Below, in pieces: positions 1 through 5,341 of a stretch of 5,341 bases of DNA. Made by a program: the position numbers and the translations under genes. The stretch is taken from NCBI GenBank assembly GCA_964573185.1, contig CAZNIQ010000031.1, positions 1 to 5,341 on the forward strand, in the 5' to 3' direction. This DNA is from Candidatus Woesearchaeota archaeon (lineage in GTDB: Archaea > Nanobdellota > Nanobdellia > Nanobdellales > CAZNIQ01). The notes beneath the pieces were generated by a model, which saw nothing but the letters and a program-made list of their open reading frames with translations, was not told the DNA's origin and searched no databases. The number at the start of each line of letters is the position of its first letter. The first letter of the stretch is position 1.

Positions 1-54
1 TGATAAACTGAATATTATCATTATTAAACTATGTTTTGCTAATTTTTGTTCCAT
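1..54 (-). CDS. 5' end of a downstream CDS that runs off the window (N-terminus MEQKLAKHSLIMIIFSLS...). Hypothetical; the hydrophobic N-terminus suggests a membrane or secreted protein.
   Basis: On the minus strand, the ATG at 54..52 opens a frame that stays open to position 1 (18 codons). A GGGAG Shine-Dalgarno-like motif lies 6 nt upstream. The start is only 26 nt downstream of the stop of the 942-aa gene on the same strand. The nearby ATG at 58..56 is in a frame that hits TAG after 9 codons. The fragment is too short to assign a family. Confidence 0.45.
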   Translation of the reverse strand, partial: MEQKLAKHSLIMIIFSLS

Positions 55-60
55 ACATTT

Positions 61-65
61 CTCCC
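61..65 (-). promoter_or_regulatory. Shine-Dalgarno-like GGGAG for the downstream partial CDS
   Basis: The minus strand reads AAAAAGGGAGAAATGTATGG. GGGAG occupies 65..61, followed by a 6-nt spacer and the ATG at 54..52. Confidence 0.45.
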
Positions 66-80
66 TTTTTAAAATAAATT

Positions 81-2909
81 TTAGTTATTTATTTTTGATA
101 ATAAGTTATTTAGTTTTTTGTTTAAATTAACTGCCCATTTATCTCTTTTACTTCTTCTCCAATCATAGATTAAATATGTAATACATGCTAAGAATGTTAT
201 TCCAGAGATTGCTAAACCAATTTCAAACCAATCTTGTGGTTTGTATCTGATGACTATTTTTAGATTTCCTGTTTCGTTTATGTAGAAACCGTTTATTATT
301 CCATATAATGGAACTGGTTGAACTTTTTGTATTAATTTTCCATCTTTGTATACCCTTGCCTCCCATAGTGGGTCATAGCTTTCAGCAAAACTTAACATAA
401 AAGGTTTTGTTGTATTTACTTGGACTTCCCATAAGGTTGGGTTGATTTTTTTATAGCTTAGATTGTAATTGTTGGAAATTTTGGTTTTATTTTTATTACT
501 TTGAATATATATTAGCAAAATCTCTTTTTTAATTTCTATATTTTTATATAAGTTTAATGAGTAATTAAGTGAATGGTTATTCCAGTTTTCAAATCCTATT
601 TGAATCCACTTTATTTTTTTTACGTTTATATCTGTTACATCCTTCGTAGATAGATTTATCTCATAAACTTTTGATGTATTTGTAAAATTTCCAACATATA
701 AAGGAGATTGTGATGTCCATATTCCATTTTCATCCATCAAAAATAAATGTATTCCTAAATTATACAATGGCTCATTAGGCTTAATTTTTATCTTAACTAA
801 TGAATTAGTTAAATCAATTGGGTTATAAAGTTCATTTCCTACTTGCCCCAATGAATATTTTTTATGAAGATTGAGATTGACATCTAACCAATTGTTAGAT
901 TGGGATACTAATATTTTATCTTTTTTATAGACCCACGGCCATGTTCCATAACTAAATCTTCCTAAATTTTGATTTGTTATGTCAATTATATAGGTCTCGT
1001 TTTTCTTTGTGAAATTAATTTTATTTATGGAAGATTTTGAATTTACAATTGCAACTTTTCTAATATCAAAAGTATTCATTAATATGAATTTATCATTTGT
1101 TGTTAAATTGCCATTAATATAATAAATTTTACTTGGAATCCATATTAAAGAACTTGAAGCATTAGGTAATTTATATACCGAGTAGTTTTTGCCTTTATAT
1201 ACTAATTTAAACCCTTCTTTCTTTAAATAATCTTCAATTCTTTTTATATCTGCTGTTGGTAATGCTTCTTTTCCTAACCTTGTATCTAATGTTTTATCTA
1301 TTAGAATATACTTTATCCCTAAATTTCTTAATGTTGATACATTCAATTCGAAGAATCTTTTATATAGCATATCATCAACTAATTCTTTACCATACCAATT
1401 TAATGGTGGTTCTCCCCCATATCTATAAATTAATGCACTCCTATCCTTAATAAATGATACAAATATCGGTCTATTAGTGAAGTAATAAGCCCACTTATAA
1501 TAAGGTAACCAAGTTCCGGGCATAATCATTACTTTTCCATAATCATTTTTTATTTGATTATTCAAAAATTCGGAAACTTTATAAGTTTCATCAGGAATTC
1601 CTTTGAAATAGTGGTTGAATAAGGTTCCAGTCCAAATTGGAAATGAAGAGGTCAGTAAAAATGAGATTACAATTAAATAAGGTAGTGTTTTTGTTATTTT
1701 TTGATTATTTGTTAATTTATTTAGTAGGTTTTTATAGCCCAAATAAGCATAAGGGATAAATACCGAGTAGCAAAAGGCAAGAATTGCAACCCATTTGTAG
1801 TTATTTCTAAATGTTCCAAAGAATGATGAATGTGTTATCAGATAAAAATAAATATCTTTTATTATTGAAGTTGGATGATAACCTTGTGCCAATAATAACC
1901 CAAGAAGGAAGAGTATGAAATAAGAGAGAAGTATTATTTTATCCTTTCTGTTATTTGTGATTTTATAATAGATAAATGCACCAAATATTATTAAAGCACT
2001 TAGTATTATTAATACAGGTCTTATTTTCCATAATATATCTGAGAAATAAAATACTTTCATTCCATAGTAGACACTAAATAATTCCCAATATCCTGATAAA
2101 TGAAAGACATTTAGTAATGTTGAAATCCCACTGTAAAACAATTCCATGTGCAATGTTTTAATAAATTGGTTTGTGTAGTATAGTTTATAGATGAATATGG
2201 GCAGAATCCACCAAAAAGACAATAAAAAACTTAAAGAAGCAATTTTTATTCCTTTTATCAGTAGCTCTTTAAAAGACCATTTATTAATAAATTTAAATGT
2301 TAATATCGTCCATACTATTATAATTAGTGATATTATTACCGTTGGAGGATTTGGAGCAAGTCCGAAGAATGAAAGTAGGAATGAAGTTGTTATTAAGTAC
2401 TTTGATTTTTTTAAGGTTATGTATTTAAATGAATAATAGAGTATCCAGGGAGTTAAAAGGTAAGGAATTAATAACATAATATTTCTTGCAATAGAAATGC
2501 AAACAAATAAATTGAATTCATAAAATATTACTGACAAAAATAGAATGGCTACTTCATCCTCTTTTATGAAATAACTCCTAATTAATTTTAAAAAACCCAA
2601 TGCTCCAAAATAAAGAAGTGAAAATTCTATGAGAGGAAATATTATCTTTGGAGGAAGGAAATGAAAAAGCATTGACATGGAGATTATAATTAACCTTCCA
2701 GATTGTATCATTGGAAAATACGAACCTCCAAAGTTTAATTCATCGAATTTATAAATATATGAATTAAATTCGGAATATGGAGACAAAAGCATACTATGAC
2801 AAATATCGTTTATAGAAATGTAATTAATCGTTAGGTAAGAATACAACACAATGATTATAAGATTTACAACAAAAAGAAATATGTCCCACTTTCTTATTTT
2901 ACTACTCAT
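81..2909 (-). CDS. Large polytopic membrane protein (942 aa) with the architecture of a GT-C-fold glycosyltransferase (YfhO / AftD-DUF3367-like layout). Specific family and substrate are unknown.
   Basis: This is a 2.8-kb uninterrupted ORF. The basic N-terminus (MSSKIRKW) is followed by roughly 12 hydrophobic helices over residues ~9-427, with K/R-rich short loops that fit the positive-inside rule. The first predicted external loop (res ~32-72) carries an acidic motif, YKFDELNFGG, where GT-C enzymes place catalytic acids. Residues ~428-893 are non-hydrophobic and rich in beta-strand-like segments. The C-terminal module SYDPLWEARVYKDGKLIQKVQPVPLYGIINGFYINETGNLKIVIRYKPQDW is followed by a TM helix (WFEIGLAISGITFLACITYLIYDW, nt 230..159) and a basic tail (RRSKRDK...). 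From memory this resembles the C-termini of YfhO-like and DUF3367-like proteins. There is no WWDYG motif, so it is not AglB/STT3. The start ATG lies 1 nt after the upstream stop, with GGTGG and GAGAGGA upstream. Confidence 0.8.
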   Translation of the reverse strand: MSSKIRKWDIFLFVVNLIIIVLYSYLTINYISINDICHSMLLSPYSEFNSYIYKFDELNFGGSYFPMIQSGRLIIISMSMLFHFLPPKIIFPLIEFSLLYFGALGFLKLIRSYFIKEDEVAILFLSVIFYEFNLFVCISIARNIMLLIPYLLTPWILYYSFKYITLKKSKYLITTSFLLSFFGLAPNPPTVIISLIIIVWTILTFKFINKWSFKELLIKGIKIASLSFLLSFWWILPIFIYKLYYTNQFIKTLHMELFYSGISTLLNVFHLSGYWELFSVYYGMKVFYFSDILWKIRPVLIILSALIIFGAFIYYKITNNRKDKIILLSYFILFLLGLLLAQGYHPTSIIKDIYFYLITHSSFFGTFRNNYKWVAILAFCYSVFIPYAYLGYKNLLNKLTNNQKITKTLPYLIVISFLLTSSFPIWTGTLFNHYFKGIPDETYKVSEFLNNQIKNDYGKVMIMPGTWLPYYKWAYYFTNRPIFVSFIKDRSALIYRYGGEPPLNWYGKELVDDMLYKRFFELNVSTLRNLGIKYILIDKTLDTRLGKEALPTADIKRIEDYLKKEGFKLVYKGKNYSVYKLPNASSSLIWIPSKIYYINGNLTTNDKFILMNTFDIRKVAIVNSKSSINKINFTKKNETYIIDITNQNLGRFSYGTWPWVYKKDKILVSQSNNWLDVNLNLHKKYSLGQVGNELYNPIDLTNSLVKIKIKPNEPLYNLGIHLFLMDENGIWTSQSPLYVGNFTNTSKVYEINLSTKDVTDINVKKIKWIQIGFENWNNHSLNYSLNLYKNIEIKKEILLIYIQSNKNKTKISNNYNLSYKKINPTLWEVQVNTTKPFMLSFAESYDPLWEARVYKDGKLIQKVQPVPLYGIINGFYINETGNLKIVIRYKPQDWFEIGLAISGITFLACITYLIYDWRRSKRDKWAVNLNKKLNNLLSKINN

Positions 2910-2910
2910 C

Positions 2911-4038
2911 TTACCACCATCCTCTCAATAACCCGAAATTCATAATCCAACTTGGTTGGGCTTCACATGGCGTCCAACAGTTCGGGCATTTACCATTTTT
3001 TATTAATTTTCTAACTTCTCTTGCTTTTTTACCCCACCAAATTTCTTTAAACGAGTTTTCCTTTAAACTTCCCATTTTAAAATTCCACTGTGTGCATGGA
3101 TAAACATTACCATAAGGGTCGATATAAGAAGAGTATGTTCCAGAAGAGCAAGGAATTACCATTTTTTTAGGATTATTTGTAAAGTTAAGTATATTCTTTA
3201 AATAGAAGTTATAAAATGTTAATTTTATTTTGTTAAATAAATCTTTTTGTCTTTTTTCTTTTTTTAAAGTGTTTATATAAAATCTAACATCCTTTTCAAT
3301 GTCTTCTTTAAATTGTCCATAAGGATTATTTAATTTATTATTTTCTCTCACATAATAGCCAGTGAAATGCTCAAAGGTAATAGTTATTTTATCAATTGAA
3401 ATTCCATAATTATTTTTAACAAATTTATAAAATTCTTCAAATCTTCCTGCGTTATATTGGGAGATAGTATATGCAAAATGGATATTTAAATTTTTATACT
3501 GCTGTTTTAATTGTTTCAATTCATTAAATAGATATATTGCCTTTTCAAAATTTCCTTCTATCCCTCTAATTTTATCATGAACCTCTGGAATTCCATCTAA
3601 ACTTATACCTATATTTAATATTTTTTTATCAGGTATTTTTTCCAAGATTTCTTTTATTTTTTTATACGAGGTTTTTGGAGAAACAGCATTTGTAGTAAGT
3701 CCTCCTGCGAATATTGATGTATTAATATATGCATAAGTTATTATATCTACGACATCTTTTTTTAATAATGCCTCCCCTCCCGTAAATTCTACCCAACATA
3801 AGTTATCTCCTATCTCATCAAATAATCTTTTCCATTCATAAAATCTAAGTTCTTCTTTATATTTATCAGGATTTTCTTTATAAATTTTCCAAATTTCACA
3901 TGTCTTACACTTAGAATTACATAAAAAAGTTAGTGCTAATGTTAGTTTTATTGGTAATGGCTTATTGTATATAATATTATTTTTTTTAGAATTTAGTATA
4001 TTACTGATAAATTCCACATGCACCACCTTTATAACCAT
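2911..4038 (-). CDS. Radical SAM enzyme with a SPASM/twitch-like C-terminal auxiliary Fe-S domain (375 aa as drawn; possibly 368 aa if the start is the GTG at 4017)
   Basis: The canonical radical SAM cluster motif C40-x3-C44-x2-C47 (LCNSKCKTCEIW) lies at nt 3921..3898. A GGE SAM-binding motif (EFTGGEALL, res 87-89) follows. A further segment, LNIGISLDG...HD..RG, resembles radical SAM TIM-barrel core strands. The C-terminus reads C297-x12-G-x4-C315 and then C351-x2-C354-x3-C358 (CSSGTYSSYIDPYGNVYPC...CPNCWTPC), at nt 3150..2965. That matches the front half of the SPASM signature with a shortened cysteine cluster. Only about 39 residues precede the first cluster, so there is no room for an N-terminal RRE/peptide-binding domain. 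Confidence 0.85.
   Translation of the reverse strand: MVIKVVHVEFISNILNSKKNNIIYNKPLPIKLTLALTFLCNSKCKTCEIWKIYKENPDKYKEELRFYEWKRLFDEIGDNLCWVEFTGGEALLKKDVVDIITYAYINTSIFAGGLTTNAVSPKTSYKKIKEILEKIPDKKILNIGISLDGIPEVHDKIRGIEGNFEKAIYLFNELKQLKQQYKNLNIHFAYTISQYNAGRFEEFYKFVKNNYGISIDKITITFEHFTGYYVRENNKLNNPYGQFKEDIEKDVRFYINTLKKEKRQKDLFNKIKLTFYNFYLKNILNFTNNPKKMVIPCSSGTYSSYIDPYGNVYPCTQWNFKMGSLKENSFKEIWWGKKAREVRKLIKNGKCPNCWTPCEAQPSWIMNFGLLRGWW
2913..2926 (-). promoter_or_regulatory. Shine-Dalgarno-like tract (GAGAGGATGGTGGT) for the 942-aa gene, embedded in the 3' end of the radical SAM gene
   Basis: The minus strand reads TTGAGAGGATGGTGGTAAGATGAGT. GGTGG ends 4 nt before the ATG (2909..2907) and GAGAGGA ends 10 nt before it. 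The tract overlaps the last codons and the TAA stop (2913..2911) of the upstream gene, which is a translational-coupling geometry. Confidence 0.5.
4021..4029 (-). promoter_or_regulatory. Strong Shine-Dalgarno-like AAGGTGGTG immediately after the GT9 stop codon. It would serve an alternative in-frame GTG start (4017..4015) of the radical SAM gene.
   Basis: The minus strand reads GAATGGTTATAAAGGTGGTGCATGTGGAA. In the GT9 frame this is E W L TAA, followed by AGGTGGTG, CAT, then GTG. In contrast, the ATG at 4038..4036 is preceded by AAAAAAGTATTAGA with no purine-rich SD. Confidence 0.45.
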
Positions 4039-5117
4039 TCTAATACTTTTTTGACATCAATATTTTCCATACATGGGAATACCTCACTATCTTCCTCATA
4101 TTCTGGATGAATACATTTAAATTCTCTCATAGTATAACTTGTATAACACGGAGAGCAGTTTAAACCAGAAGTAATTACTTTATATTCAGTATTCCAAGGA
4201 TGAACTTTTCTTGTATCTGTATTACCAAAGAAACATATTATTTCTTTTCCAAGAGCAGCGGATATGTGCATTATACCAGAATCAGTTGTAACGACCTTTT
4301 TACATCTTTTAATGATTGAAGCAACTTCCCTTATTCTAAAACCTTCAACAAGATAAATTTTTTTGTTTATCAATGGTTTAAAATTCTCTAACAAAAATTT
4401 TTTCACATATTTTTCCTCAGGTCCTATATTAAATAAAATTTGATAATCATTACTTATTATTAAATTGATGAGTTCTTTTAATTTATTTAATGGCAATCTT
4501 CTTTTTTCACTACCTTTTTTAACTCTTGAGCTTCCATTATGGATGAAAATTGCCTTATCATAATCAATACCATTTTCTTCAAAAAATATCTTGCCTTTTT
4601 CTTCATCTTCATCAGTTAAATACAACTCTAAATTCATTTTTTTAATTTCATTTTCGCTAACAACAATATCAAGAGGTATCAACAAATTTACATTATTTAT
4701 CACGTTATGTTTATTCTCCTCAGCATCAATTAAATCAGTATTCAAAAAATGAAATTCTTTAAAATATCCTTTTTTAAACTTATGTGCTATTCTTCTTTTA
4801 GCTCCAATTAAGTAACCAACAATATGATAATGCTTTGGGTAGGAAGGATATACTGTAATTGAAACATCGTATTTTCCTTTAAAATTTTTTAATAAATATT
4901 TTATAGAACCAAAATAACCTGCTCCAAAGAAATTAAAATAATAAACATTTTCTAAATTTGGATTTGTTTCTAAGATTTCATAAGTTGCCTTTTGCATAGT
5001 TAGTACTTCAATTTTTGCGTCTTTAAAATTTTCTCTAAGTGATTTAATCATTGGTGTAGCCATTAAAGCATCTCCTAGCCCGGGTAACGCAATGACTAAT
5101 ATTTTTATATAAACCAC
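4029..5117 (-). CDS. Glycosyltransferase family 9 (ADP-heptose:LPS heptosyltransferase-like, GT-B fold), 362 aa
   Basis: The N-terminal signature KILVIALPGLGDALMATPMIKSLRENFKDAKIEVL (nt ~5096..5028) matches the GT9 pattern (kIlvir...lGDvv...P...aLr..yP.a.i..l). The segment NKHNVINNVNLLIPLDI resembles the h.ver.l.ll..lg element. The C-terminal nucleotide-sugar-binding signature is TTDSGIMHISAALGKEIICFFGNTDTRKVHPW (nt 4289..4215). The tail CSPC...C...C...V is typical of the family. The size is typical for GT9. The start as drawn is a GTG. Confidence 0.8.
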   Translation of the reverse strand: MVYIKILVIALPGLGDALMATPMIKSLRENFKDAKIEVLTMQKATYEILETNPNLENVYYFNFFGAGYFGSIKYLLKNFKGKYDVSITVYPSYPKHYHIVGYLIGAKRRIAHKFKKGYFKEFHFLNTDLIDAEENKHNVINNVNLLIPLDIVVSENEIKKMNLELYLTDEDEEKGKIFFEENGIDYDKAIFIHNGSSRVKKGSEKRRLPLNKLKELINLIISNDYQILFNIGPEEKYVKKFLLENFKPLINKKIYLVEGFRIREVASIIKRCKKVVTTDSGIMHISAALGKEIICFFGNTDTRKVHPWNTEYKVITSGLNCSPCYTSYTMREFKCIHPEYEEDSEVFPCMENIDVKKVLEWL

Positions 5118-5135
5118 CCCTACAATATAATTGTC

Positions 5136-5150
5136 TTTTATAAATTTACT
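5136..5150 (-). promoter_or_regulatory. Possible archaeal-type BRE/TATA promoter element (AGTAAA-TTTATAAAA) upstream of the GT9 gene. Speculative.
   Basis: The minus strand reads AGTAAA at 5150..5145 (fits the BRE-like RNWAAW) followed by TTTATAAAA at 5144..5136 (TATA-box-like). The TATA centre is about 23 nt upstream of the GTG at 5117, which would place a transcription start at or next to the start codon. AT-rich DNA produces such matches by chance, and the host domain is unknown. Confidence 0.2.
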
Positions 5151-5160
5151 GACTATGTGA

Positions 5161-5341
5161 TTACGATATTCCTTTCTTTATTAGTTTTTTACTACACTCT
5201 TTCACGACTTTATAAAAAGATAATCCATATTTATAGCTTAAGTATTCGATACAGTTTGAAATTATTGCCATGAATCTAACAAATCCGATATTGCTTTTTT
5301 CAGACGTTAAGTAATTCCCTTCAACTTCTAAAATCGATTTA
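5161..5341 (-). CDS. 3' end of an upstream CDS entering from beyond the window (C-terminus ...EGNYLTSEKSNIGFVRFMAIISNCIEYLSYKYGLSFYKVVKECSKKLIKKGIS*). Hypothetical.
   Basis: I translated this by hand. The minus-strand frame is open from the window edge (5340) to the TAA at 5163..5161, giving 59 sense codons. It is on the same strand as the cluster and 43 nt upstream of the GT9 start. It is absent from the supplied track, presumably because it is truncated or short. I recognise no family motif. Confidence 0.5.
   Translation of the reverse strand, partial: KSILEVEGNYLTSEKSNIGFVRFMAIISNCIEYLSYKYGLSFYKVVKECSKKLIKKGIS

Follow-up and report, generated by a model that had tools for sequence, protein, structure and literature searches.

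Why does a gene for a radical SAM enzyme lie between the genes of two glycosyltransferases, and do the three encode one dedicated pathway? The first-pass annotation had described three co-directional minus-strand open reading frames in the window (the whole stretch of 5,341 nucleotides analysed here), and exactly these three are present, with lengths far above the chance expectation for DNA of 26% GC. The genes and their flanking elements are as follows.

5162..5341, minus strand: upstream flank, whose reading frames are short and broken (open reading frames and in-frame stops)
5136..5144, minus strand: TTTATAAAA, an archaeal TATA-box-like element read from the sequence, lying roughly 20-27 nt before the GT9 start
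4029..5117, minus strand: gene for a GT9-family GT-B glycosyltransferase, 362 aa (PF01075)
4021-4028, minus strand: AGGTGGTG, a Shine-Dalgarno-like site read from the sequence, between the GT9 stop codon and GTG 4017
2911..4038, minus strand: radical SAM/SPASM-type gene (ATG 4038, 375 aa; likely GTG 4017, 368 aa; PF04055 and PF13186)
81..2909, minus strand: gene for an AftD-like GT-C membrane glycosyltransferase, 942 aa (PF11847)
1..54, minus strand: 5′ end of a Wzx-type (Polysacc_synt_3) flippase gene, MEQKLAKHSL..., from similarity to Methanocaldococcus bathoardescens JH146 and contig extension

How tightly are the three genes coupled? A single nucleotide, at 2910, separates the radical SAM gene from the GT-C gene, whereas the 10-nt overlap between the GT9 and radical SAM genes holds only for the longest reading frame (ATG 4038). 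The GT9 stop codon lies at 4029-4031, and a radical SAM start at GTG 4017 leaves an 11-nt spacer with no overlap. This GTG is the likely true start, because it is favoured by the gene callers, the N-termini of 29 homologues and the AGGTGGTG site, which lies within the junction of the GT9 and radical SAM cassettes. Neither the overlap nor the spacer leaves space for an internal promoter. The tight coupling described initially stands, as does the 1-nt gap, while the overlap is probably not real. The TTTATAAAA element is a candidate operon promoter, as judged from its letters and position. The dN/dS values against orthologues span 0.12-0.26 (GT9, 0.13-0.18; radical SAM, 0.18; GT-C, 0.26), and all three genes are under purifying selection.

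Where does this DNA come from? At the nucleotide level, the window shares about 85% identity with JH146, and its host is therefore an archaeon, which the first-pass annotation had not recognised; the stretch reads as a fragment of a surface-glycan locus of Methanocaldococcus, a heat-loving methanogen. Given an archaeal host, there is no LPS, and the lipid carrier is presumably dolichol phosphate. At the downstream end, a GGGAG Shine-Dalgarno-like site precedes the flippase start at 54; positions 1-82 are 89% identical to positions 3022-2943 of the JH146 locus (L089), which form the start of a gene with a PF13440 match (2.2e-18), and the flippase reading frame continues in the contig extension (L002). 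At the other end, the upstream flank has no homology to the JH146 locus and no match in the Pfam search. It forms the left edge of the mosaic, and may be the decayed remnant of a mobile element.

The domain assignments made at first (GT9, radical SAM with SPASM, and GT-C) all exceed the Pfam gathering scores and hold; the identities of the genes are established. The GT9 protein matches Glyco_transf_9 (PF01075) at 5.6e-22, and shares 83% amino acid identity with JH146_1460 and 86% nucleotide identity with JH146. Its motifs are placed as follows.

5070-5072, minus strand: catalytic-type Asp16
4266-4283, minus strand: DSGIMH nucleotide-sugar motif, residues 279-284

D279 and H284 do not vary among 20 homologues, and D16 is nearly invariant. 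The LPS core heptosyltransferases WaaC, WaaF and WaaQ (CAZy GT9) share with this protein the Pfam family, the GT-B fold, and the DSGxMH and N-terminal Gly-Asp motifs. However, the window protein lies far below every NCBIfam heptosyltransferase equivalog cut-off (106 against 170; 85 against 467), and its archaeal host lacks lipid A and Kdo. The layout is indeed not that of an LPS core operon, as had been noted.

The GT-C protein matches GT-C_AftD (PF11847) at 2.3e-9, and is 80% identical to JH146_1459 in amino acids and 85% identical to JH146 in nucleotides. Its profile matches the AftD sequence of 6w98 with E=8.7e-11, and a Foldseek search with its model, which is of moderate quality (pLDDT 65), returns AftD (E=1.8e-11, TMq 0.48-0.50), followed by CBM-type beta-sandwiches and STT3. 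The protein is divided into three parts.

1545-2909, minus strand: N-terminal helix bundle, residues ~1-455
237-1544, minus strand: extracytoplasmic mixed and beta-sandwich region, residues ~456-891
below ~236, minus strand: C-terminal anchor helix, from near residue 892

The mycobacterial arabinofuranosyltransferase AftD (PDB 6W98; PF11847) is built in the same order: a GT-C membrane domain at the N-terminus, then an extracytoplasmic part that carries CBM-like beta-sandwich modules, and finally a membrane anchor at the C-terminus. The soluble region here sits between the helix bundle and a single C-terminal helix with a basic tail; this placement, and the alignment to AftD, in which the equivalent domain is periplasmic, bear out the proposal that a large domain lies outside the cell. 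The invariant K372 aligns with the essential K361 of AftD, and both proteins have acidic residues near the D41 and E251 positions, while D474 and E475 of AftD align with non-acidic residues. AftD is larger (~1,400 aa, ~10% identity) and has a C-terminal helix bundle, whereas the 942-residue protein has a single helix there; it also carries fewer CBMs and shows no sign of ACP binding. Since its archaeal host has no arabinogalactan, its donor and acceptor must differ from those of AftD. It also lacks a WWDYG motif, in agreement with the earlier view that this is not an oligosaccharyltransferase layout.

The radical SAM protein matches Radical_SAM (PF04055) at 1.5e-9 and SPASM (PF13186) at 2.4e-12 (score 47.4, cut-off 21.5), and its AF2 model has a pLDDT of 90. 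The following elements were located.

3898..3921, minus strand: codons of the cluster motif C40-x3-C44-x2-C47, invariant in 30 homologues
3772-3780, minus strand: GGE SAM-binding motif, read from the sequence
2965..3150, minus strand: auxiliary Fe-S domain, C297-x12-G310-x4-C315 ... C351-x2-C354-x3-C358, from Cys conservation and the SPASM profile

All five cysteines of the auxiliary domain are invariant in the homologue alignment; the domain has a reduced, five-Cys SPASM motif, and the auxiliary domain of BtrN aligns with it in a profile alignment. The protein reaches none of the NCBIfam cut-offs (the best is NirJ1, 80.6 bits against 650), and its family, of about 2,100 clusters, matches no curated family. 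Its structural neighbours include the sugar-modifying enzymes BlsE, DesII, BtrN, AbmM and SpeY, which likewise lack an RRE and combine a radical SAM core with a twitch/SPASM-type auxiliary-cluster domain at the C-terminus. However, they are just 14-15% identical to it and work in bacterial secondary metabolism, where their substrates are soluble antibiotic precursors or NDP-sugars, whereas the context here is primary envelope glycan assembly in archaea, with GT4 and GT2 fusions. Moreover, the top structural match is SkfB, a peptide maturase; the neighbours are generic for SPASM/twitch enzymes, and this weighs against a sugar-tailoring reading.

What, then, connects this enzyme with glycans? 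A glycosyltransferase lies within three genes in 65 of the 83 other loci of the family, and glycosyltransferases make up 100 of 421 nearby genes as against 11 of 421 distant ones (p=2e-21, odds ratio 11.6), in a sample consisting mostly of related Micrarchaeota loci, with ~33% identity and possibly another function than the Methanocaldococcus clade. The usual partners in Micrarchaeota are GT2, carbamoyltransferase and PMT_2 genes, not GT-B genes, and many loci of the family pair a small GT2 with a PMT_2 GT-C. A GT4 gene stands directly upstream in L003, L005, L006, L011, L012, L051 and L091, and fusion proteins join the enzyme to GT4 (P0302, L015) or to both GT2 and GT4 (P0299). A cytoplasmic glycosyltransferase and a recognised GT-C both occur within four genes in 22 of the 83 loci. 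The order GT-B, radical SAM, GT-C recurs with other families (GT4/PMT_2) in L012 (GT4-rSAM-PMT_2), L006 and L080 (GT9-rSAM-604-aa polytopic protein). The family is strongly associated with glycosyltransferases, adjacent or fused, and the placement of the enzyme in glycan assembly by the first-pass annotation is upheld.

Could the substrate be a membrane lipid? Instead of tailoring an exported glycan, the enzyme might modify or rearrange a membrane glycolipid at its sugar head group, or modify the lipid carrier itself, in the manner of calditol synthase (Cds), HpnJ or Tes. HpnJ, of the hopanoid cyclitol ether, and Cds share the logic of a glycosyltransferase followed by radical SAM sugar remodelling. 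In Sulfolobus, the lipid receives its hexose from a glycosyltransferase, and Cds, an archaeal radical SAM enzyme acting on the lipid-linked hexose (PMC13459092), remodels that sugar. Tes/GDGT-MAS and HpnH are found among the sequence and fold matches, and the Trp-rich C-terminus (RGWW) conserved in the close clade could sit at the membrane interface. However, the Tes matches are limited to the N-terminal core, and Cds and HpnJ act on membrane-lipid head groups outside loci with multiple glycosyltransferases, a flippase and a GT-C. The neighbours here are genes of multi-step oligosaccharide assembly (the Wzx flippase and several glycosyltransferases), not lipid-core genes, and we consider this reading unlikely.

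Do the three genes instead encode an obligatory series of steps, in which a sugar is placed on a lipid, modified by the radical SAM enzyme and transferred outside by the GT-C? The first-pass annotation had proposed them as a candidate system, an idea that would fall if the three families seldom occurred together in other genomes. The close packing without space for internal promoters, the recurring class order and the glycosyltransferase fusions favour this idea, but a GT9 gene was found in only one of the 83 other radical SAM loci, and by this standard the trio fails at the level of families. In JH146, the GT9 and GT-C orthologues are adjacent, with no radical SAM gene or remnant between them; in L003, the radical SAM orthologue (80% amino acid and 85% nucleotide identity) is flanked by GT4 genes, and its GT-C is five genes away; in L094, the GT9 orthologue occurs without either partner; and in one other lineage the radical SAM orthologue is frameshifted. 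The radical SAM gene is therefore optional in the locus. Homology to the GT9 orthologue stops at 4028/4039 and that to the radical SAM orthologue begins at 3999; all of the breakpoints coincide with gene ends, and the locus is thus a mosaic of cassettes. The loci of relatives carry GT2, GT4, PglC-like, methyltransferase, AlkP-like, AftD-like, DUF2079 and Polysacc_synt genes. The GT9-rSAM-GT-C arrangement itself is a recent recombinant, and a dedicated three-step pathway is quite improbable.

Bacterial O-antigen and capsule loci are hypervariable, and exchange cassettes of glycosyltransferase and tailoring genes between close relatives. The present locus resembles them in its gene-boundary breakpoints and in the mobile-element or toxin-antitoxin debris close by, but it is archaeal, and the position expected for a Wzy polymerase or ligase is filled by an AftD-type GT-C. 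We favour, with a probability of about 0.6, the reading that the window is part of a hypervariable surface-glycan assembly locus of Methanocaldococcus that depends on a flippase and exchanges cassettes at gene boundaries, and in which the radical SAM protein is an optional tailoring enzyme.

A role for the enzyme in maturing proteins or peptides, either as an anSME-like activator of neighbouring alkaline-phosphatase/sulfatase-type enzymes or as a glycoprotein modifier, is very unlikely. In the PDB, the enzyme is closest to SkfB, CteB and anSME, a Phosphodiest/Sulfatase(faint) protein lies a few genes off in L003, L009 and L091-93, and one source labels a homologue AslB. However, the N-terminal RRE domain is absent (the core starts near residue 30, and the alignments enter SkfB and CteB at residues 101 and 90), as is an adjacent small precursor gene, which agrees with the earlier statement that this is not a RiPP system. 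Furthermore, the window, L005 and L006 lack an AlkP-type gene, the 7-8 cysteines of anSME/SPASM are reduced to five, no maturase NCBIfam cut-off is approached, and the fusion partners are glycosyltransferases, not peptides or AlkP enzymes. That the gene is an incidental passenger in a recombination hot spot, as the mosaic beside a broken upstream region and its absence or frameshift in close relatives might suggest, is the least probable of all, given the family-wide glycosyltransferase enrichment, the covalent GT4 and GT2 fusions, the purifying selection, and the GGTGGTAAnATG junction to the downstream gene, which is identical in the window and L003.

How might such a tailoring system work? 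A synthase, a flippase and a GT-C also act together in the AglD/AglR/AglS glycosylation of Haloferax. Multi-component extracytoplasmic glycosylation by a polyprenyl-phosphate-sugar synthase, a flippase and a GT-C is described for the three-component pentofuranose systems (PMC11127046) and the Gtr/Arn systems. In all of these, as in the window, a lipid-linked sugar would be made, sometimes modified at the inner face, flipped, and transferred outside by a GT-C, possibly with a CBM. Unlike the window, they have no radical SAM enzyme, their modifiers being epimerases, deformylases and phosphatases, and they use a GT2 synthase in place of GT9.

For the optional-tailoring reading, we infer the substrates, step order and chemistry as follows; dolichol as the carrier, and the side of the membrane given to each step, are assumptions based on archaeal glycobiology in general, and the order first proposed is plausible. 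The GT9 protein, as a cytoplasmic GT-B enzyme, would transfer the sugar of a nucleotide sugar onto a glycan linked to a lipid, presumably dolichyl phosphate. The 5′-deoxyadenosyl radical of the radical SAM enzyme would take a hydrogen off a carbon of the sugar, in either the nucleotide sugar or the lipid-linked intermediate; the enzyme's auxiliary Fe-S clusters, one or two in number, would handle the electron, and the outcome may be oxidation, epimerisation, dehydration or rearrangement. The Wzx-type flippase would export the lipid-linked product, and the AftD-like GT-C, aided by its carbohydrate-binding-type outer domain, would use lipid-linked donors to transfer or extend glycan on the outer side of the membrane. 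The radical SAM protein would thus perform an optional tailoring step on the sugar of the lipid-linked glycan, as a member of a large uncharacterised family that partners cytoplasmic glycosyltransferases.

The radical SAM/SPASM-type enzyme of the window (rSAM) belongs to an uncharacterised, widespread family of glycosyltransferase-coupled enzymes. Searching 1.84 billion representatives with a profile retrieved 2,124 proteins at E≤1e-30. At 50% identity, the family comprises about 2,100 clusters; it is mainly archaeal, with several bacterial phyla in addition. Among the named members, which are mostly archaeal with a few bacterial MAGs, Micrarchaeota form the majority, and Borrarchaeum, Hodarchaeota, Bathyarchaeia, Desulfurococcaceae, Methanoperedens, and Nanoarchaeum equitans are also represented. 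When metagenomes were scanned with the single rSAM protein, one distant locus was the only match. Of 83 loci of the family, which leave out the window's own contig and are not phylogenetically independent, 65 have a recognisable glycosyltransferase no more than three genes from rSAM, and glycosyltransferases account for 100 of 421 nearby genes versus 11 of 421 genes at least five positions away (odds ratio 11.6, p=2e-21). The frequent partners are small GT2 enzymes (44 loci), carbamoyltransferases (41), GT4 enzymes (26), and PMT_2-type GT-C proteins (25). A cytoplasmic glycosyltransferase (GT-B or GT2) and a recognised GT-C are both found within four genes of rSAM in 22 of the 83 loci.

In the clade nearest the window's rSAM, a GT4 gene stands directly upstream in the loci L003, L005, L006, L011, L012, and L091 and in L051 of N. 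equitans, and the order in L012 is GT4-rSAM-PMT_2. Moreover, GT4 is fused to rSAM/SPASM in the 757-aa protein P0302 and in an Acidobacteriota ORF (L015:7820-11017), and the 1,080-aa protein P0299 combines rSAM/SPASM with GT2 and a GT4 C-terminal domain. With glycosyltransferase neighbours across the family and these fusions, the link of rSAM to glycan assembly proposed in the first-pass annotation is real, and the partnership is robust. A literature search turned up no characterised radical SAM enzyme from archaeal or polysaccharide glycan loci.

Individual lineages show variations on this arrangement. Nanoarchaeum equitans Kin4-M keeps the GT4-rSAM pair (L051:9877-10761, 37% identity), and its retention in the 490-kb genome of an obligate symbiont suggests that the pair matters for the envelope of this organism. 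Micrarchaeota and their relatives (L017-L084) share a conserved module of small GT2, rSAM, carbamoyltransferase, and a PMT_2-type GT-C or GT4, frequently accompanied by a CARDB-like secreted, anchored protein; LeuRS and an M50 protease are often adjacent. One Saccharibacteria MAG and one Chloroflexota MAG carry a comparable module. The Methanoperedens locus L078 (L078:4686-8220) has the order rSAM-B12-rSAM-PMT_2-GT4-AftD-like: a B12-binding, methylase-type radical SAM gene comes after the family member, so that this glycan locus encodes a pair of radical SAM enzymes.

The cluster motif C40x3C44x2C47 and the SAM-binding GGE motif (G87-G88-E89) are invariant across the rSAM homologues, and the AF2 model (pLDDT 90) has the strand/helix pattern of a partial TIM-barrel. 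The C-terminal domain contains five invariant cysteines, C297x12Gx4C315 ... C351x2C354x3C358, which constitute a reduced SPASM motif. The full seven-cysteine motif, CX9-15GX4C-gap-CX2CX5CX3C-gap-C, ligates two auxiliary [4Fe-4S] clusters; it was not found in rSAM, which has no conserved cysteine past residue 358. The five cysteines present could fully ligate one cluster. The closest PDB relatives by sequence are SkfB, CteB, MoaA, Tes, BtrN, and BlsE, and those by fold are SkfB, BlsE, DesII, CteB, MoaA, anSME, SuiB, PqqE, BtrN, viperin, AbmM, and SpeY. This likeness is generic, and none of the NCBIfam models comes near its cut-off.

We considered several known identities for rSAM. An anSME-like maturase acting on adjoining AlkP-type proteins is a weak candidate: such proteins are neighbours in some lineages only, rSAM has a smaller set of cysteines, and the fusions in its family involve glycosyltransferases. 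A RiPP maturase (SkfB, CteB, AlbA, PqqE, MftC, and others) was rejected, as rSAM has no RRE and no adjacent precursor gene. Only about 30 residues stand ahead of its cluster motif, and the alignments, which start from residue 101 of SkfB and residue 90 of CteB, contain no counterpart of the N-terminal peptide-recognition region of these two enzymes; against the RiPP maturase models of NCBIfam, rSAM scores 36-64 bits, with cut-offs of 265-850. The heme d1 and heme b synthases NirJ and AhbC/D were dismissed on scores far below their cut-offs (80.6/650, 75.1/515, 71.9/500, and 71.7/500).

The window itself (GC 26-29%) carries three long minus-strand ORFs, as the first-pass annotation had claimed, with the following features.

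5117..4029, minus strand: GT-B glycosyltransferase gene (GT9), 362 aa
4038..2911, minus strand: rSAM, longest ORF, 375 aa
4021-4028, minus strand: AGGTGGTG site, before the rSAM GTG at 4017
2909..81, minus strand: AftD-like polytopic membrane protein gene (GT-C), 942 aa
From 54: start of the next ORF (MEQKLAKHSL...), continued in the contig extension L002 (5,752 bp)

The claimed domains were confirmed by Pfam, all above the gathering thresholds: Glyco_transf_9 (PF01075, E=5.6e-22, 78.7 bits, cut-off 22, residues 109-326), Radical_SAM (PF04055, 1.5e-9, 38.7 bits, cut-off 29.5) with SPASM (PF13186, 2.4e-12, 47.4 bits, cut-off 21.5, residues 297-355), and GT-C_AftD (PF11847, 2.3e-9, 36.2 bits, cut-off 26). 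A single base separates the rSAM stop from the GT-C start, within ...GGTGGTAAGATG, as described. The 10-nt overlap reported between GT9 and rSAM exists when the longest rSAM ORF is taken, but the junction is more likely an 11-nt spacer with the start at GTG 4017, because the gene callers give a 368-aa product, the N-termini of 29 homologues begin at the equivalent of residue 8, and the listed site precedes this GTG. No small ORF was found between the genes, and an Rfam scan of the window gave no match. Upstream of GT9, a TATA-like element at 5136-5144 is a candidate promoter. Also upstream, window 5162-5341 and L002:1-330 hold short frames interrupted by in-frame stops, and the former segment has no homology to Methanocaldococcus bathoardescens JH146. 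This flank looks like a decayed mobile-element gene; a Pfam search of it for a transposase remnant gave no match.

GT-C is 80% identical to JH146_1459, its orthologue in strain JH146, and the gene beside that orthologue encodes a protein 83% identical to GT9. In nucleotides, window 95-2771 and 4039-5118 are 85% and 86% identical to JH146, respectively, and window 1-82 is an 89% match to the start of its Polysacc_synt_3 flippase gene. Judged by these protein and DNA identities, the host is a Methanocaldococcus-like archaeon. The JH146 locus has the order GT2-GT4-GT2-flippase-AftD-like(685 aa)-ManC-hypothetical-GT9-[about 540 bp]-AftD-like(926 aa), with no rSAM gene between GT9 and GT-C and no remnant detected by tblastn. 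The place of rSAM is occupied by the roughly 540 bp without a called gene (L089:9463-10000), which have no similarity to rSAM.

The rSAM segment (window 2906-3999) matches other loci: it is 85% identical in nucleotides and 80% in amino acids to the gene in L003, and 84% in nucleotides to that in L091/L092. The gene order in these loci is GT2-GT4-rSAM-GT4-methyltransferase-AlkP-like-AftD-like. The GT2 and GT4 genes upstream of the L003 rSAM are 86.5% identical to JH146, and this similarity ends exactly where rSAM starts. This homology break and the GT9/GT-C spacer show that JH146 is without rSAM at both of the positions that its relatives use. A third GT9 orthologue (L094, 85% nucleotide identity) is followed by toxin-antitoxin genes, with neither rSAM nor GT-C. 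As read from these identities, the trio arose recently by recombination of cassettes that meet at gene boundaries, with rSAM as an optional component of the locus. The dN/dS values of 0.12-0.26 indicate that all three window genes are maintained.

In L091-L093, the rSAM gene (L091:9573-10678; 80% identical) has a frameshift after about residue 262, with the same break in several independent samples; selenocysteine read-through was rejected, since translation gives a frameshift and no in-frame TGA. The L091 contig, labelled Candidatus Desulfofervidus auxilii, is probably misbinned, as it carries genes of Methanocaldococcus type (MJ0235 domain).

Do the three genes form a unit? The idea of a conserved, dedicated trio did not survive the comparison: GT9 occurs in one of the 83 other rSAM loci and an AftD-like gene in 3-4 of them, never together. 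Nor is the trio inseparable, as JH146 has GT9 and GT-C without rSAM, and L094 has GT9 alone. The one GT9 among these rSAM loci belongs to L080, from an Acidimicrobiia MAG. There, three genes that overlap by a few bases (L080:390-4515) encode GT9, an rSAM of 26% identity, and a polytopic membrane protein of 604 aa without a Pfam match. By hhalign, this membrane protein is unrelated to the AftD-like profile. The downstream type III PKS, FAD monooxygenase, and GT4 genes hint that L080 makes a glycosylated phenolic lipid. The class-level order GT-B, rSAM, GT-C thus recurs, though the family-level trio is not conserved. Of the earlier interpretation, the radical SAM/glycan assembly link stands and the dedicated trio falls, and the host is archaeal.

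In GT9, D279 and H284 are invariant among 20 homologues, and G281 and G15-D16 are nearly so. The TTDSGIMH segment aligns with TNDSGPMH of 3TOV and TNDSGLMH of WaaF, and we take the Gly-Asp and D-S-G-x-M-H residues to be the equivalents of the HepI catalytic residues. An LPS heptosyltransferase I, II, or III was rejected, as every NCBIfam equivalog cut-off is missed (TIGR02193/02195/02201 and RfaQ/RfaF/RfaC; bits/cut-off 106.1/170.2, 84.9/467, 77.7/134.6, 56.3/185.3, 48/569, and 31.6/437) and the host is archaeal; archaea do not have LPS. These enzymes use an ADP-heptose donor and a lipid A-Kdo/heptose acceptor, and no heptose-pathway gene is visible within the window. We found no report on GT9 in Methanocaldococcus in the literature. 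Four C-terminal cysteines conserved in most homologues, C322xxC325 ... C339 ... C352 (residues 322-352, window 4062-4154), may form a structural metal site.

The likeness of GT-C to AftD, the mycobacterial arabinofuranosyltransferase, is seen in both sequence and predicted fold. A profile of GT-C homologues matches the AftD sequence 6w98_A with E=8.7e-11 across residues 39-549, and a Foldseek search with the AF2 model (pLDDT 65) retrieved AftD (E=1.8e-11, TMq 0.48-0.50), followed by CBM30/28/11/4 beta-sandwiches and STT3. Among the AftD residues shown to be essential (K39, D41, E251, K361, and D474), K361 falls in the exact column of the invariant GT-C K372, E251 is two columns off the nearly invariant E256, and D41 is four columns off the invariant D35. 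K39 has no GT-C counterpart, and D474/E475 face R480/P481 in a low-confidence stretch of the alignment. The basic tail after the C-terminal helix places the beta-rich domain outside the cell, and GT-C is predicted by the pLDDT 65 model to share with AftD a GT-C fold and an extracytoplasmic CBM-bearing domain. AftD uses a decaprenyl-phospho-arabinose donor, binds ACP, and has three CBMs and a C-terminal helix bundle, whereas the window protein is much shorter at 942 aa, with a shorter outer domain and a single C-terminal helix. An oligosaccharyltransferase of the AglB/STT3/PglB type was rejected: the 942 aa contain no WWD[YW]G, and the STT3 fold match is weak (E about 1e-3). No characterised archaeal counterpart of AftD-like GT-Cs was found in the literature.

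An insert in the outer domain (about residues 640-820, window 450-990) is present in only some homologues. In addition, the last ~100 GT-C codons (window 146-460) are 81% identical in nucleotides to L003, and the remainder of the L003 gene is divergent (37% amino-acid identity). The disparity indicates recombination inside the gene. Among the homologues, the C-terminal region is mosaic independently of the insert.

The most economical reading of the window is a flippase-dependent surface-glycan locus, for which we infer the substrates, order, and chemistry. GT9 would act at the cytoplasmic face. Then, rSAM would perform an optional radical tailoring of the sugar, on either the nucleotide sugar or a lipid-linked intermediate. 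Finally, the AftD-like GT-C would work outside the membrane, using lipid-linked donors. This logic resembles that of bacterial multi-component GT-C systems, and calditol synthase (Cds) is an earlier example of a radical enzyme that acts on a lipid-linked hexose (PMC13459092). We propose, with a probability of roughly one in three, that these rSAM enzymes make up a class of glycosyltransferase-coupled radical enzymes not recognised before. They would remodel a sugar on the lipid-linked intermediate after or just before glycosyl transfer, through a reaction such as epimerisation, oxidation, or rearrangement of the carbon skeleton. If so, the natural GT4-rSAM fusions would mark a partnership between a glycosyltransferase and a radical enzyme.

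The tailoring of antibiotic sugars and of a few lipid head groups by radical SAM chemistry is well documented; to our knowledge, such chemistry is undocumented in cell-surface glycan assembly on lipid carriers. Methanocaldococcus offers a natural experiment, with rSAM present, absent, or frameshifted among close relatives, and JH146 is cultured; genetic tools are available for M. jannaschii. The window also illustrates how glycan loci diversify in archaea: cassettes are exchanged at gene boundaries, much as in bacterial O-antigen loci. The rSAM family deserves experimental follow-up. Its members in Micrarchaeota, Asgard archaea, Bathyarchaeia, Nanoarchaeum, and Methanocaldococcus consistently neighbour glycosyltransferases or are fused to them, a pattern that points to a modification of archaeal envelope sugars not recognised so far.
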